Positions 5,581-60,455 of a stretch of 64,000 nt of DNA are shown in pieces. Under the pieces are notes generated by a model that was given only the letters and a program-made list of their open reading frames with translations, was not told where the DNA came from and made no database searches. This DNA is from a virus. The stretch spans positions 64,001-128,000 of IMG/VR virus record IMGVR_UViG_3300046779_002349. One strand, written 5' to 3'. The position numbers and the translations under genes were made by a program. Each line of letters begins with the position of its first letter. The stretch's first letter is position 1.

Positions 5581-8499
5581 TTATGCTGCGGTTACTACTT
5601 CCGATACTGCTTCGAGTTCTACTTCGATAACATTCATTGGAAGAGGAATTGCTACCGTTACTTTAACAATCACTCTGTCTCTAAAGGTGGGGTGATTGAT
5701 AACGGTTACTTTGCCTGGGGATTTATCAGCATCGTAGAAATTGATGATTTGAGGACCTACGTCGATGTCAGACAGCGTGGTAGTTCTAGCATTGTCCAAA
5801 ATCAAGAATACTTCGTGATTAAGAATTGCTAGCGTAGTAGGAGTTACATTTCTGCGTCCCACAAACTTGTCCAGAGCATCTTTAATCTGCAAGGAGAGAT
5901 TGTCTACATTTACACCAACAGAGTCTTCGTAGTACAGTCTACCGCTGTCTACATCAGTTGTCAGCTGATGTCTCACTACGACTTGCGATCCTTCATTATC
6001 CTGCATGACGATCATTACACCGTTAGCAGCTGCCTTATTCAGCAGGTTTCTGGTGTAGCGAGAGTACATAGCTGGAGTCTCCGTAACACTTGTGACTTGT
6101 ACTTTAGTAAGACCAAGTTGAGGTTTCAATGCTGCCCGACGTGCTGCGATCTCAGCTCCAATAAATTTGACTGGTAGTGTAAATTCATTTCCGTCCACAT
6201 CCACACTCACAGGAGAATCACTCCAAATAAGGACACCTCTTCTGTTTCTAACCGACTTAGCCAGTTCGGAAACATACTCCACTTGGTTTTCTGGAGCATT
6301 TTTCTTAAAGATGGTGGCGTCAACAGCGGGGGAGATTTCTAGGTTTGGAGCGGACTCGGTGGTGATCAGTAGCTCATAGTCTGAGATGACTTGTTGCACC
6401 ACAAAATCAGTTCCAAAAATTCTAACGACATCACCAGGGAAAACGTCTTTAGAAACCAATTGTGCATCCTCTGTGAAAGATACTAGTCTGTTTGCGCCAT
6501 CGTAGTCTGTAATAGTTGCTTTAAGCGGGGTTCCGTCCAAGTATGTCGAGATTGCCACAAACTCACTAGGAACGTCTACACCGAAGTAAACTCGTCTAAA
6601 GTTCTTTACGGTTTTGGCGGACATTGCTTCTGCATGGTCCACAGCTGCGGAGAAGGCTGCGTGGTCATCACTCACAACTCCCAAAGCGTAGGTTTGGTCG
6701 GTAGACTCAATTTTCTCTAGCGATTTTGCAATATCTTCAGCACTATCGCTAGCGGTACGCAGGGCGAAAAAGATTTGACTTGGAGATGCTTTCCAAGCAA
6801 GATAGGTTGCGAAGGCCAGATCATTCTCTGGAACAATAGGTCCGAAAGCTTTAACGTCGTCCAGGTTACGCACAGTTACTTTGTTTTCCGTGGCAAGTGG
6901 AGTCTTGGCGGCTTTCCAGTTGGAGTAAATAGTTCCTACACCATCCACAAGGGGGACGAATTCATTACCTACGTTCCTACCGGAAACTTTCCACAACAGA
7001 CTAGGATTATAGGAAACTGACGTTTTGGATACGTCCAGTGCGAAACCGTCTCCGTCTGGTTGATTACCTTTTACGGAACCGTTAGCAGAACCACGTAGTT
7101 TAATGTTCGTCAACGCACCACCATGAGTTACAGGTCCATCTAAAATAAGGGCGGTAAACTCAGTAGTCGACGTTTTTGCTGCAACGGCATTGATGAAGTA
7201 AATGTCGTTTTTACGAAGGCCTTTTTGTGGAAGATCCTTGATGTCGACATAGTCCAACTCGACCTCAACTCCATTGGAGATTGCGATTTCCACGTTAGTT
7301 GCTGTGTAAGGAATCGTGCGAGTAAAAGCGGTGAATGATCCTCTAGCATCATAAACTTGCACGATAGCAGAATCTCCTGCTTGGTAGCTACCTTGGATGA
7401 CTTTTACATAATAAGTATTATCTACGCTACCAGTAAACAGAGATGTTCCCGACGTGATCATGCTTCCGGATTCGACTGGAGCGTAATCAACATAGTAACG
7501 GAATCCTATACTGTCACCAACTTGAGGTGTTTGGTCGGGGTATAGATTTGCCTCAAATGCGGAGAAACCAGTCAGCGAAACAATATTCGCAAAGTTGAAG
7601 GTGGTCAAGGAGTTTGCCACGCTGAAGCTAACCAGGGAGTTAATAACCCCATTGCTGGAGGTTACTCTTGCGGTACCTGTGTTGGTGCTGGTGTTAAAGC
7701 TGACTACAGAAATATTGATGCTAAGACCAGCGTAAGTGACGCCATCCACAGTAAAGCTATGTCCGAGCATGTTCACTCTACGATTCGGGCTGTTAGCTCC
7801 AGAAGCCCAGGACGAGGGTTGTGCACCAACAGCAGTGAAACTACCAGTAGCTGTAATCTCGTTAGGCTCAAATTCCACTCCAGCGGGAACCCCAACTTGT
7901 ACAGAAGTAGTTTTAGCTACTGGGTTCGAGCTAGCTGCAGCAAAAAGCGTATCGTCTTTTTCCGTATTGGAGCCGAGCGTAGAGGCTACTGGTTTTCCTA
8001 CAAAACCCGTTACTTTTCTACGGATGGGAGTTCCACCAGTAGCGGTATTGTAGCAAAGCACAGTGTCGCCAATGCTGACTGGGCGTCCTTCTAGCGCGCT
8101 CCACAGAACTCCATCGCCAGCAACTCTCAAATTTTTGCTAGTTACAGCAATGTTGTTTCTGGTTCCTTTAGTCGCATCAATTCCGTTATCTTCGTCAAAA
8201 TCACTAGGATCCACCAATTCGAACTCCGCATCCTTAACGAGTACATCGAGACTCGATTCATCTAGTTTATGAACTAGGCCGAGAGAGTCGACTTCTACGA
8301 GATTACCGTCTCGTGTAAAAGAGAGTTCAAAAGTGTCGCCTTCAGTGGAAAAAACTTTTTCACTAAAATCGCCAGTGAAACCTGGAGACTCGTATTGAGT
8401 GCCGACAATGCAAGCTGCTTGTCTTGGCGTAGTAGGATCTAGCTCAACCGCTAATTTTTGGTCGATGTTTAGTTGTGGTTCAGTATAATTTAAGATCAT
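5581..8499 (-). CDS. tail sheath protein
   Basis: 972 aa with a sheath-like C-terminus (NKAAANGVMIV..VVRHQLTTD..EDSVGVNVD..VAIPLPMNVIEV); followed by a tube-sized gene. Confidence 0.75.
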   Translation of the reverse strand: MILNYTEPQLNIDQKLAVELDPTTPRQAACIVGTQYESPGFTGDFSEKVFSTEGDTFELSFTRDGNLVEVDSLGLVHKLDESSLDVLVKDAEFELVDPSDFDEDNGIDATKGTRNNIAVTSKNLRVAGDGVLWSALEGRPVSIGDTVLCYNTATGGTPIRRKVTGFVGKPVASTLGSNTEKDDTLFAAASSNPVAKTTSVQVGVPAGVEFEPNEITATGSFTAVGAQPSSWASGANSPNRRVNMLGHSFTVDGVTYAGLSINISVVSFNTSTNTGTARVTSSNGVINSLVSFSVANSLTTFNFANIVSLTGFSAFEANLYPDQTPQVGDSIGFRYYVDYAPVESGSMITSGTSLFTGSVDNTYYVKVIQGSYQAGDSAIVQVYDARGSFTAFTRTIPYTATNVEIAISNGVEVELDYVDIKDLPQKGLRKNDIYFINAVAAKTSTTEFTALILDGPVTHGGALTNIKLRGSANGSVKGNQPDGDGFALDVSKTSVSYNPSLLWKVSGRNVGNEFVPLVDGVGTIYSNWKAAKTPLATENKVTVRNLDDVKAFGPIVPENDLAFATYLAWKASPSQIFFALRTASDSAEDIAKSLEKIESTDQTYALGVVSDDHAAFSAAVDHAEAMSAKTVKNFRRVYFGVDVPSEFVAISTYLDGTPLKATITDYDGANRLVSFTEDAQLVSKDVFPGDVVRIFGTDFVVQQVISDYELLITTESAPNLEISPAVDATIFKKNAPENQVEYVSELAKSVRNRRGVLIWSDSPVSVDVDGNEFTLPVKFIGAEIAARRAALKPQLGLTKVQVTSVTETPAMYSRYTRNLLNKAAANGVMIVMQDNEGSQVVVRHQLTTDVDSGRLYYEDSVGVNVDNLSLQIKDALDKFVGRRNVTPTTLAILNHEVFLILDNARTTTLSDIDVGPQIINFYDADKSPGKVTVINHPTFRDRVIVKVTVAIPLPMNVIEVELEAVSEVVTAA

Positions 8500-19871: not shown

Positions 19872-20665
19872 CCTAGTACGACGTTATTTTTGATCTCTGT
19901 TCTAAATTGTTTCCAGCCAACAAAGTTTGAATCCCGCTCATATGGGTCATCCAGCGGAGTAGCTTGATGTTCTGTAGGACTTGCATGTACGGGTTGCTCG
20001 ATGATAAGTTTTTGAAAAATCCTTTTTAATTTCTCTTCGCTATCGTCCAGTGCTCTAAATGAAACTTGAGCGCACAAAGATGCTGATGCCTCTCTATCAT
20101 ATGCGGATTTACTATCTACATAAGGTAGGTGCCACTCTCCTTTTTTGAGTAGTTGAGGAACAGAATCTTTAATGCATGCTTTCATTTTTTTAGCAATTAC
20201 CTGCAACTCTGGTTGAGCATCTTTATGATCTCTCAGCGCAAAAAAGTTATTTAATTCGGTTGTGGTGATTAATACTTTAATACGAGTAAATGGCTCTACT
20301 AAACGATTCGCATTTTGTTTGTGCAGTCCGATTTTATTTAACAGGATTGCAGATACGCCACAGATTCTAGCAGTGGTGTACCAGACAAATTTAGCAAGCA
20401 TGAGTCGTAAGCCTGTGAGCTCTTCTTTTGCGGACATTCCTTTTTTATTCTTTCCCCAGAAAACAAATCCAACAGGATTTTTAATGGCTTCCCAGGCAAG
20501 TTTTAAAACAGGAATTGCTCTAGAGGAACTTGCGTTTCTCGTAAATGCTCTGTGCGTCATAATTTCTGCATGAGCAAACCTTTGATAAACACATTCGAAT
20601 GTATAAATGTTTTTACCTTTTTCTGATACTGAGTGTTTGATTAATTTGATGTCGATGTCTTCCAT
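19868..20665 (-). CDS. thyX: FAD-dependent thymidylate synthase
   Basis: THRAFTRNASSSRAIP, HKQNANRLVEPF, NFFALRDHKDAQPE, CAQVSF and HASPTEH motifs. Confidence 0.9.
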   Translation of the reverse strand: MEDIDIKLIKHSVSEKGKNIYTFECVYQRFAHAEIMTHRAFTRNASSSRAIPVLKLAWEAIKNPVGFVFWGKNKKGMSAKEELTGLRLMLAKFVWYTTARICGVSAILLNKIGLHKQNANRLVEPFTRIKVLITTTELNNFFALRDHKDAQPELQVIAKKMKACIKDSVPQLLKKGEWHLPYVDSKSAYDREASASLCAQVSFRALDDSEEKLKRIFQKLIIEQPVHASPTEHQATPLDDPYERDSNFVGWKQFRTEIKNNVVLG

Positions 20666-58967: not shown

Positions 58968-60050
58968 TTAAGCGATCTCTGTGATGATGAGATCCCTTCC
59001 ACGGAATCTCTCCTTAAGTGCAGTGACTAAGCTTTGTCCTGCTTCTGGAGACACGCCCTCAAAGTGGAGTACTCCCGTTGTTTGGTTCACCATGGACAAG
59101 TATGGCGCGGACGAAAGATTAGGGAACAGGCAAGCCATGTCATAAACCTCATACTGAGATTTATGCCACCACTCATACTGCGGACCCTGGTAGTTTTTGT
59201 AGCTATCTACAAGAGTCCCTTTTTCTTTGAACCTTTCAATACCTACCTTGCGGACGAATTCCGCTTTTACATCGGCGTTAGTAATGTTCGTGTACTTATC
59301 TAGATCAAGCTGCTCTTCTGGGGTCATGACAAGCCACTCAGGTACTGTTACTCCGTTGAGAGCAAAGATTCGGATATTTCCTCTCCCCGCATACTCAAAA
59401 GCTGGACCGTTCTCGCAATGAGGAAGCCCCATGTGCGCACCGTTTGGTCCTTCCCCTGGCTCACCCAACTTCATTACGGTCGGCTTCTGAGATACAATGG
59501 TATACTCAGGCAATGGGTAAACACAACCGAGTTCTGCAGTAGCAGCCCACTTGTTGTACTTCTCCATCATGTCCTCTGGGATTACCACCTTCAGGTAATT
59601 GAAGGCGTAGTCGTAGAACGCAAATGAGCTGGCATAAAATGACCCACACTGCCATGGAAGTCGGGTGTTCGGAATTTTAAGTCGGTCGGGATTTCCATTA
59701 AATACCTTGTCCAAGCCTTCTTCAATTGCCGCTTGATCAATAGGGTAGTTGTAATGGGTGATTAGATGGCAGGCAATCCAGGCTTCTACTGGATTGTCAA
59801 CGATCAGTGTTGGTGTATTCGGATCGAGCTCGATAACCTCTCTAAACCCCTTCACAATCTCTTTGGTTCGAGCTGGGTCGAGTCTATCATTGTTACATCC
59901 AATTGCTGTCCATTTTGCAATATAGACATCTGCCATTTTAATTTGCTCTTCTGTGAGCTCGTCTGGTTTTACTTGTTCTGCTACTTGTTTAATTTGATTA
60001 ATAGCCTCACTTTGCGGCTCTTGCATGTTGCTTGTGATTTCGTTTTCCAT
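58968..60050 (-). CDS. DUF6745-like protein
   Basis: AFYDY, G..YP....IVS.KP, LPHCENGPA.EY, ALNGV.VP.W and NA.V....V.K.G.ER. Confidence 0.7.
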   Translation of the reverse strand: MENEITSNMQEPQSEAINQIKQVAEQVKPDELTEEQIKMADVYIAKWTAIGCNNDRLDPARTKEIVKGFREVIELDPNTPTLIVDNPVEAWIACHLITHYNYPIDQAAIEEGLDKVFNGNPDRLKIPNTRLPWQCGSFYASSFAFYDYAFNYLKVVIPEDMMEKYNKWAATAELGCVYPLPEYTIVSQKPTVMKLGEPGEGPNGAHMGLPHCENGPAFEYAGRGNIRIFALNGVTVPEWLVMTPEEQLDLDKYTNITNADVKAEFVRKVGIERFKEKGTLVDSYKNYQGPQYEWWHKSQYEVYDMACLFPNLSSAPYLSMVNQTTGVLHFEGVSPEAGQSLVTALKERFRGRDLIITEIA

Positions 60051-60065
60051 ACGGTTAGTTAAATA

Positions 60066-60127
60066 GGCATGATTGCCATACGCTTGTGCGTTTCGGATTA
60101 TATGCCGGTAATCCTCATCAGTGGCAA
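60066..60127 (-). ncRNA. type I hammerhead ribozyme
   Basis: UUGCCA CUGAUGA GGAUUA(ccggcaua)UAAUCC GAAA CGC(acaa)GCG UA UGGCAA: full catalytic core and three perfect stems; loop-II GGCAU pairs with downstream AUGCC. Confidence 0.92.
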
Positions 60128-60136
60128 GTTATAAAT

Positions 60137-60170
60137 AAAAAGAAAGAGCCACTTTTACGTGGCTCTTTCT
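60137..60170 (-). terminator. intrinsic terminator
   Basis: agaaagagccac/gtggctctttct hairpin plus T-tract. Confidence 0.8.
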
Positions 60171-60176
60171 GTGACT

Positions 60177-60362
60177 TTATTTTAGGCACCAACCGATGAT
60201 TGCGCCTAAAATTAGTGCGACTAGAACATATATTGCTATGTTCCAAATGAACACAACCAAACCCCATACAGCCCCGCCAATGAAGGCGAATGCCGAAATG
60301 AGGGTATAAATAGTAATGATCGTAAGGAAGCCGATTAGTACGTGCTTAATAAATTTTACCAT
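60177..60362 (-). CDS. small membrane protein (probably leaderless)
   Basis: Start MVKFIK lies 6 nt after the motif TATAAT; very hydrophobic. Confidence 0.55.
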   Translation of the reverse strand: MVKFIKHVLIGFLTIITIYTLISAFAFIGGAVWGLVVFIWNIAIYVLVALILGAIIGWCLK

Positions 60363-60368
60363 AACAAT

Positions 60369-60398
60369 ATTATATAACACAAGCACCCCTATTTTTGC
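60369..60398 (-). promoter_or_regulatory. phage promoter motif copy 3
   Basis: GCAAAAATAG-gggt-GCTTGTGTTATATAAT. Confidence 0.75.
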
Positions 60399-60420
60399 CG
60401 TTATTTTTTATGTATAAAAT

Positions 60421-60455
60421 AAAAAAAAAGAAGCCGAAATTAATCGACTTCTTTT
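60421..60455 (-). terminator. intrinsic terminator
   Basis: aaaagaagccga/tcgacttctttt hairpin (one G:U pair) plus T9. Confidence 0.75.

Follow-up and report, generated by a model that had tools for sequence, protein, structure and literature searches.

Pseudoknots were found in all three types of hammerhead ribozyme by Perreault et al. (2011), and they are needed for fast cleavage (PMC3088659). Phage intergenic hammerheads with such pseudoknots have been described since 2011 (PMC3088659). The rule for accepting a hammerhead in that work was that three helices surround the core and that no mispair is located next to the core (Perreault et al., 2011; PMC3088659). Hammerheads also flank genes in prophages, and cutting of long or polycistronic phage transcripts has been proposed, not proven (PMC3088659, PMC6765202). 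What hammerheads do in bacteria and phages is not yet settled (PMC6765202).

The type I hammerheads from phages, prophages, and metagenomes described by Perreault et al. (2011) are similar to the locus presented here. They share its core, the open stem I, and the pseudoknot pairing of loop II with the continuation of the stem I strand; they are intergenic between phage genes, and the same role in mRNA processing was proposed for them (PMC3088659). In contrast to that set, the present locus follows a terminator and is separated from the upstream stop codon by a 49-nt gap, its stem III has 4 bp and an ACAA loop, and its loop II has 8 nt. The glmS ribozyme resembles the locus in being a self-cleaving RNA in a bacterial-type mRNA leader, with a 5'-OH product that decides the fate of the mRNA (PMC6765202). 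It differs in having an unrelated fold and in being metabolite-dependent, whereas no ligand is indicated for the locus.

The locus is one more hammerhead of a phage ribozyme kind known since 2011. With it, a freshwater phage that is uncultured and very divergent gains a well-supported hammerhead, and it led to a large set of phage type I pseudoknot hammerheads that are not called by current Rfam models. The main value is in the class-level regularities and in this gap in Rfam coverage; the locus alone does not settle the role of hammerheads.

Source phage and genome context

The genome analyzed is the IMG/VR virus record IMGVR_UViG_3300046779_002349 (150,179 bp; CheckV completeness ~77%). The locus is located in a stretch of 64,000 nucleotides (positions 64,001 to 128,000 of the record), referred to as the window, and coordinates are those of the window unless a genome position or a contig is given. 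The source phage is an uncultured and very divergent freshwater virus with a genome of ~150-195 kb. No match to it was found among deposited phages, either by DNA or by protein.

Within the 150 kb analyzed, the hammerhead is the sole small ribozyme; an Rfam scan of the remaining sequence gave no further self-cleaving RNA of this size class. Outside the window, Rfam called a group I catalytic intron with 89.2 bits (E = 2.5e-21) at L180:448-674 on the minus strand, approximately genome positions 20348-20574. The phage thus carries two kinds of catalytic RNA. Two tRNAs were observed in the same genome at L181:3741-3894. A link to RNA repair was looked for with the Pfam models of RtcB and TROVE, neither of which had a match in the 150-kb genome. 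The Pfam model of T4 RNA ligase 1 had no match in this genome, nor in any control genome, so that its negative result is not informative.

Architecture of the hammerhead locus

When read on the minus strand, positions 60127-60066 were found to contain all defining elements of a hammerhead together with a pseudoknot. From 60130 to 60066 the RNA reads AAC-UUGCCA-CUGAUGA-GGAUUA-CCGGCAUA-UAAUCC-GAA-ACGC-ACAA-GCGU-A/UGGCAA-UC-AUGCC, with the slash marking the predicted cut. The 5' strand of stem I (UUGCCA, 60122-60127) was recognized from the sequence, by the descriptor scan, and by the covariance model. It is followed by the catalytic core C3-A9 (CUGAUGA, 60115-60121), in which N7 is U here and C in a sister phage. 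Stem II (60095-60114), seen in the sequence and by the descriptor scan, pairs GGAUUA (60114-60109) with UAAUCC (60100-60095) and has G10.1-C11.1 as its closing pair. Its 8-nt loop, CCGGCAUA (60108-60101), carries the pseudoknot bases GGCAU at 60106-60102. The core bases G12, A13, and A14 (60092-60094) precede stem III (60080-60091), where ACGC (60091-60088) pairs with GCGU (60083-60080) around the loop ACAA. An initial annotation of the locus had given stem III as CGC/GCG. These three inner pairs are right, but the stem has 4 bp once A15.1-U16.1 is counted. The 3' strand of stem I (UGGCAA, 60073-60078; sequence and descriptor scan) is followed by the linker UC and then, 2 nt past stem I, by the pseudoknot partner AUGCC in the 3' tail (60066-60070).

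The lengths of stems I, II, and III are 6, 6, and 4 bp, respectively, with no mispair next to the core. U1.1-A2.1 in stem I, G10.1-C11.1 in stem II, and A15.1-U16.1 in stem III (A at 60091, U at 60080) are all paired. All invariant core bases are present (11/11), and position 17 is an A, which is a non-G nucleotide as required. The topology is that of type I, with stem I open and stems II and III closed by loops. GGCAU of loop II and AUGCC of the 3' tail are complementary over 5 bp. The pseudoknot predicted from this complementarity, which is also indicated by covariation at the class level, has a duplex energy of -7.5 kcal/mol and is among the strongest in the class described below.

According to hammerhead numbering, the predicted cleavage site is located after A17 (60079) and before U1.1 (60078). 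The cut would leave a leader of 28 nt (60051-60078) on the downstream mRNA, the ATG of which is located at 60050. The leader contains no Shine-Dalgarno motif. The leaders are rich in A, but this was rejected as a distinctive trait, ribosome-binding regions being A-rich in general.

On re-reading the minus strand, all hammerhead coordinates of the initial annotation proved correct, and the bond it had predicted to be cut, between 60079 and 60078, and the resulting 28-nt leader agree with the sequence. Its view of the locus, namely a complete hammerhead of type I in which loop II forms a pseudoknot with the 3' tail, is in agreement with the motif statistics, the sister-phage conservation, and the covariance model presented below. 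It is very likely that the complete type I hammerhead at the locus is real.

Motif statistics and conservation in a sister phage

We scanned the whole 150,179-bp genome with a descriptor covering all three hammerhead topologies, and the single match was the locus at 60127-60066. Among 200 genomes simulated by a second-order Markov model there were 0.17 loose matches per genome, while none of the 200 contained a match as strict as 6/6/4 bp.

One close relative of the 360-aa protein encoded downstream of the ribozyme (91% identity) was found, on four metagenome contigs syntenic with the window. The upstream sequence was identical across all four sister contigs, and the distinct orthologous ribozyme sequences are two only, one from the window and one from the sister phage. 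The sister phage keeps 60 of the 62 bases of the ribozyme and its pseudoknot. One of its two changes is a U to C at N7, the only free core position, which gives CUGACGA; the other is a C to U at an unpaired position of loop II. The surrounding 2.2 kb is 82.9% identical, against which 60/62 has a binomial P of ~9e-4 and ties the maximum for any 62-nt segment, whereas compared to the neighboring non-coding DNA alone, which is also well kept (93% identity in IGR1 and 94% in the terminator), the excess conservation is marginal (P = 0.057).

Covariation, which the initial annotation had named as a check, was found to be strong in the class of relatives, both for stems I and II and for the pseudoknot. 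At the locus, on the other hand, there are only two distinct orthologous sequences, which differ at N7 and at the unpaired loop base. Covariation is therefore established at the level of the class, not of the locus.

Flanking genes and terminator

The small gene upstream of the ribozyme (60177-60386, minus strand) encodes a hydrophobic membrane protein of ~61-69 aa with two helices and is conserved in the sister phage. It is bracketed by strong terminators at 60455-60426 and 60170-60141 on the minus strand, and the layout of the region (60177-60455) resembles a moron-like cassette inserted before the ribozyme. The terminator that ends the small gene was identified by a terminator scan as an intrinsic hairpin with a 12-bp stem and a 6-nt loop (60141-60170, minus strand) followed by UUUUAUUUAU, with the U-tract at 60131-60140. 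The hammerhead had been annotated as following shortly after a terminator, and we found 13 nt between the terminator stem and stem I. The terminator is kept in the sister phage, where a C-G pair at the top of the stem is changed to U-G. The 49-nt gap from the stop codon of the small gene to stem I holds this terminator and is unusual for the class.

The downstream gene (58968-60050, minus strand) encodes a protein of 360 aa, which had been annotated as DUF6745-like. Protein searches connect it to DUF6745 via its homologs only. The protein itself did not match any Pfam family even at E<=10, while homologs at 50-55% identity carry PF20530 weakly; two of these, at 52-55% identity, had bit scores of 32.8 and 26.1, the cutoff being 27. 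The AlphaFold model of the protein is confident (pLDDT 86, pTM 0.73). No match for the model was found in the PDB, with a best E of 0.7 in Foldseek and a best Z of 4.8 in a wide VIA-align search. A protein search revealed no relatives in viral contigs. Hundreds of homologs at ~50% identity were observed in metagenomes, and the sole named source among these is a Lyngbya MAG.

Proposed processing of read-through RNA

We assign a probability of about 0.82 to the reading that the locus is a genuine, catalytically competent hammerhead whose cut of read-through RNA uncouples the downstream cistrons. Only read-through RNA would contain the ribozyme, because a strong terminator precedes it. Transcripts reading through the terminator at 60170-60141 would fold into a three-helix junction, in which stems I and II would be held parallel by the 5-bp pseudoknot pairing of loop II with the 3' tail. 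The RNA would then be cut by its own activity after A17, at the 60079/60078 bond, which would leave a 2',3'-cyclic phosphate end on the upstream fragment. The downstream block, with the DUF6745-related gene first, would be released as an independent mRNA that has a 5'-OH and a fixed leader of 28 nt. Whether the cut mRNA would be stabilized or destabilized would depend on the host RNases.

By uncoupling the downstream cistrons from the upstream RNA, the ribozyme would be a natural counterpart of synthetic ribozyme insulators. In insulators of the RiboJ type, which were engineered from a plant satellite RNA ribozyme, a hammerhead-type ribozyme located tens of nucleotides before the start codon trims variable upstream RNA and gives a defined leader. 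The placement before the start codon is similar at the locus, which differs from these insulators in being natural and in having the pseudoknot as a predicted tertiary contact. The analysis shows the motif, its conservation, and its place in a covarying phage class; cleavage, transcription through the site, and an effect on mRNA stability or translation are what we infer. Among the sequencing runs on record, none listed as RNA was found to contain the locus. The most likely function of the ribozyme would be the cutting of read-through or polycistronic phage RNA. The initial annotation had also proposed that read-through RNA is processed, which agrees with the location between cistrons throughout the class.

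Promoter-like motif within the ribozyme

The initial annotation also pointed to TTGCCA-N19-TATAAT overlapping the ribozyme. This candidate motif (60097-60127, minus strand) is present as written, but its spacer of 19 nt is outside the range of 16-18 nt and the promoter scan does not call it. If it were a promoter, a real ribozyme could serve to destroy read-through RNA as a fail-safe behind the terminator, while the embedded promoter would supply the productive mRNA. Transcripts starting near 60090 would be without the catalytic core and remain uncut, and the 5'-OH product of read-through RNA would be degraded, as with glmS and RNase J1. We find this unlikely. The fate of the glmS 5'-OH product is in agreement with it (PMC6765202), and so is the motif itself, which has a perfect TATAAT and a -35 hexamer with five of six matches in stems whose sequence is not dictated by the ribozyme. 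Moreover, four other intergenic TTGNNN-N16/17-TATAAT sites just upstream of genes suggest that promoters of the sigma-70 type are used by the phage, and at least 10 downstream genes are without another obvious promoter after the two terminators. These other sites, however, have spacers of 16-17 nt and are located 6-15 nt from the start codon, compared to the non-canonical 19-nt spacer and the 46 nt from TATAAT to start codon at the ribozyme. The rest of the class argues in the same direction, since no embedded promoter is found there and the ribozyme mostly follows directly on the stop codon of the upstream gene, with no terminator in between.

TTGNNN-N16/17-TATAAT sites were observed at window positions 61267-61239, 32815-32787, and 30234-30206 on the minus strand and at genome position 47814. 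They end 6-15 nt before the ORF starts (61223, 32773, and 30199). On the gene strand, five of eight such motifs are intergenic, while the intergenic share of the strand is only 13%. Should these sites be promoters, transcription from them would give mRNAs that are leaderless or have very short leaders.

Terminator, hammerhead, and embedded promoter could also act as one compact module through which the same gene block is expressed as two kinds of mRNA, differing in fate and in the stage of infection at which they are made, although we regard this as quite improbable. One species would be the cut mRNA with a 5'-OH and the 28-nt leader; the other would be an uncut 5'-triphosphate mRNA from ~60090 with the stem III hairpin. 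In such a module, a swap of pairing partners between GGCA and UGCC might tune the ratio of the two species.

Folding energy and alternative pairing

GGCA and UGCC are each present twice in 60127-60066 on the minus strand, in stem I and in the pseudoknot. For this reason the minimum free energy structure given by ViennaRNA (-15.3 kcal/mol) is a partner-swapped, inactive fold, which is level with the two-dimensional hammerhead fold without the pseudoknot (-15.0 kcal/mol). In the swapped fold the 5' UGCC pairs with GGCA of loop II, and the 3' GGCA pairs with UGCC of the tail. This near equality would be expected of a conformational switch, in which a factor or co-transcriptional kinetics sets the cleaved fraction. 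Such a switch is highly unlikely, as the active fold is favored once the pseudoknot duplex, at about -5 kcal/mol, is added, and no ligand or factor is indicated. Furthermore, the swap hairpin in the 3' product is not a feature of the class, with a mean of 1.78 paired bases compared to 1.66-1.71 in two controls.

Coverage by Rfam hammerhead models

The initial annotation had proposed a check against the Rfam hammerhead models, and no family reached its threshold at the site. In gathering mode, Rfam called only a tRNA in the window and no hammerhead family. The site was not scored by RF00163 (Hammerhead_1), RF02276 (Hammerhead_II), or RF00008 (Hammerhead_3), the first two of which were scanned directly, even though these families represent the same ribozyme class and the same catalytic core. 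The only Rfam alignment was obtained in permissive mode with RF03152 (RAGATH-1-hammerhead), at 16.5 bits (E = 2.7), the gathering score being 56.3. RAGATH-1 consists of a 5' hairpin, an AU-rich linker, and a type I hammerhead; the locus is built similarly, its terminator hairpin being followed by a U/A-rich spacer and then by the hammerhead. The lengths of stem II and stem III differ, and the locus is not a member of that family.

Thirteen clear relatives of the same design (L008, L012, L013, L014, L017, L019, L020, L021, L028, L030, L041, L047, and L055) were equally uncalled, with 0/13 reported by the Rfam hammerhead families at gathering score. The lack of a call at the locus is therefore due to what the models cover and not to the RNA. 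The curated Rfam models appear to under-represent this subclass of phage type I hammerheads with a pseudoknot.

A class of phage type I hammerheads

To collect relatives we used a pattern in which the core and stem III were fixed and stems I and II and the tail were free. The search of IMG/VR gave 49 matches, ~42 of which are complete hammerheads of type I that share the design of the locus. In these viral members the open stem I has 5-7 bp, stem II has 5-7 bp, and loop II pairs with the tail 1-3 nt past stem I. The metagenome search gave at least 81 matches; among the 81 listed, 53 have both stems, and these represent 24 lineages. Patterns specific for the pseudoknot had no match in viral or metagenome contigs, and likewise none was found for the exact stem II pattern.

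Covariation was assessed in 22 distinct viral sequences, with the window excluded. Stem cells were paired in 94.9% of cases, compared to 31-37% when the partner columns were slid. Cells with a double change numbered 96, compared to 26 in shuffles, and 0 of 500 shuffles were as high. Compensatory changes were found in 11 of the 12 pairs of stems I and II, and an alignment of 38 distinct sequences based on a covariance model gave similar covariation numbers. The pseudoknot was also found to covary: in the viral set the mean duplex energy was -5.3 kcal/mol with a sequence's own tail and -3.5 kcal/mol with swapped tails (0/2000 permutations as low), and among the metagenome matches listed it was -4.9 and -3.3 kcal/mol, respectively (0/1000 as low).

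We built a covariance model, R1, from the 22 viral sequences without the window. R1 scores the site with 44.7 bits (E = 4.7e-11); because the pattern used to pick its seeds was taken from the core and stem III of the window itself, ~20 nt match by construction, whereas the match in stems I and II and in the spacing is not by construction. The site is the sole match of R1 in the window and in the whole genome, and the locus belongs to this covarying phage class. A chance look-alike or an inactive relic in a block kept for, e.g., terminator or promoter function agrees with the missing call by the curated Rfam models and with the conservation of the flanking non-coding DNA, but it is very improbable given the 0/200 simulated genomes with an equally strict motif, a core intact at every base, sister-phage substitutions placed exactly on N7 and an unpaired loop base, a pseudoknot among the strongest in the class, and the R1 score.

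The class follows a tight positional rule: stem I begins where the upstream gene stops, and ~30 nt separate the cut from the start codon that follows. The distance from the cut to the start codon has a class median of 31-32 nt and is 28 nt at the locus. The cut is located 20-50 nt before a start codon in 18/23 viral lineages and, among the metagenome matches listed, in 19/23 lineages, compared to 27% of random positions. Stem I starts at a median of 1-2.5 nt past the upstream stop codon, and the gap is at most 5 nt in 17/22 viral lineages and, among the metagenome matches listed, in 13/20 lineages. The locus shares the significant R1 score and the cut 20-50 nt before a start codon with the class; it deviates in the gap, which is 49 nt and has the terminator within. 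This positional regularity supports the proposed, unproven cutting of polycistronic RNA into defined mRNAs of single genes or blocks.

A protective 5'-terminal hairpin gained by the cleaved mRNA was considered as a further class feature and rejected, since 352 of 1000 permutations were as high.

Many phage contigs carry several small ribozymes, in contrast to the single one in the 150 kb analyzed here. Several contigs were observed to have two hammerheads, ~270 nt to 1.1 kb apart, flanking small genes. Second hammerheads that were missed by the pattern and found with R1 are located at L008:2243-2317, L032:4827-4901, L050:2484-2556, and L055:988-1060, where they flank single small genes. On the IMG/VR contig L013 a Pistol ribozyme (7407-7472, minus strand; 42.1 bits, above the gathering score) is located ~1 kb upstream of the hammerhead at 6371-6413, in line with the known tendency of small ribozymes to occur together. 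Where the gap past the upstream ORF is long (class members L018, L019, L067, and L106), stem I is mostly preceded immediately by a GC-rich hairpin, which in many cases lacks a U-tract. This hairpin may protect the 3' end of the upstream fragment.
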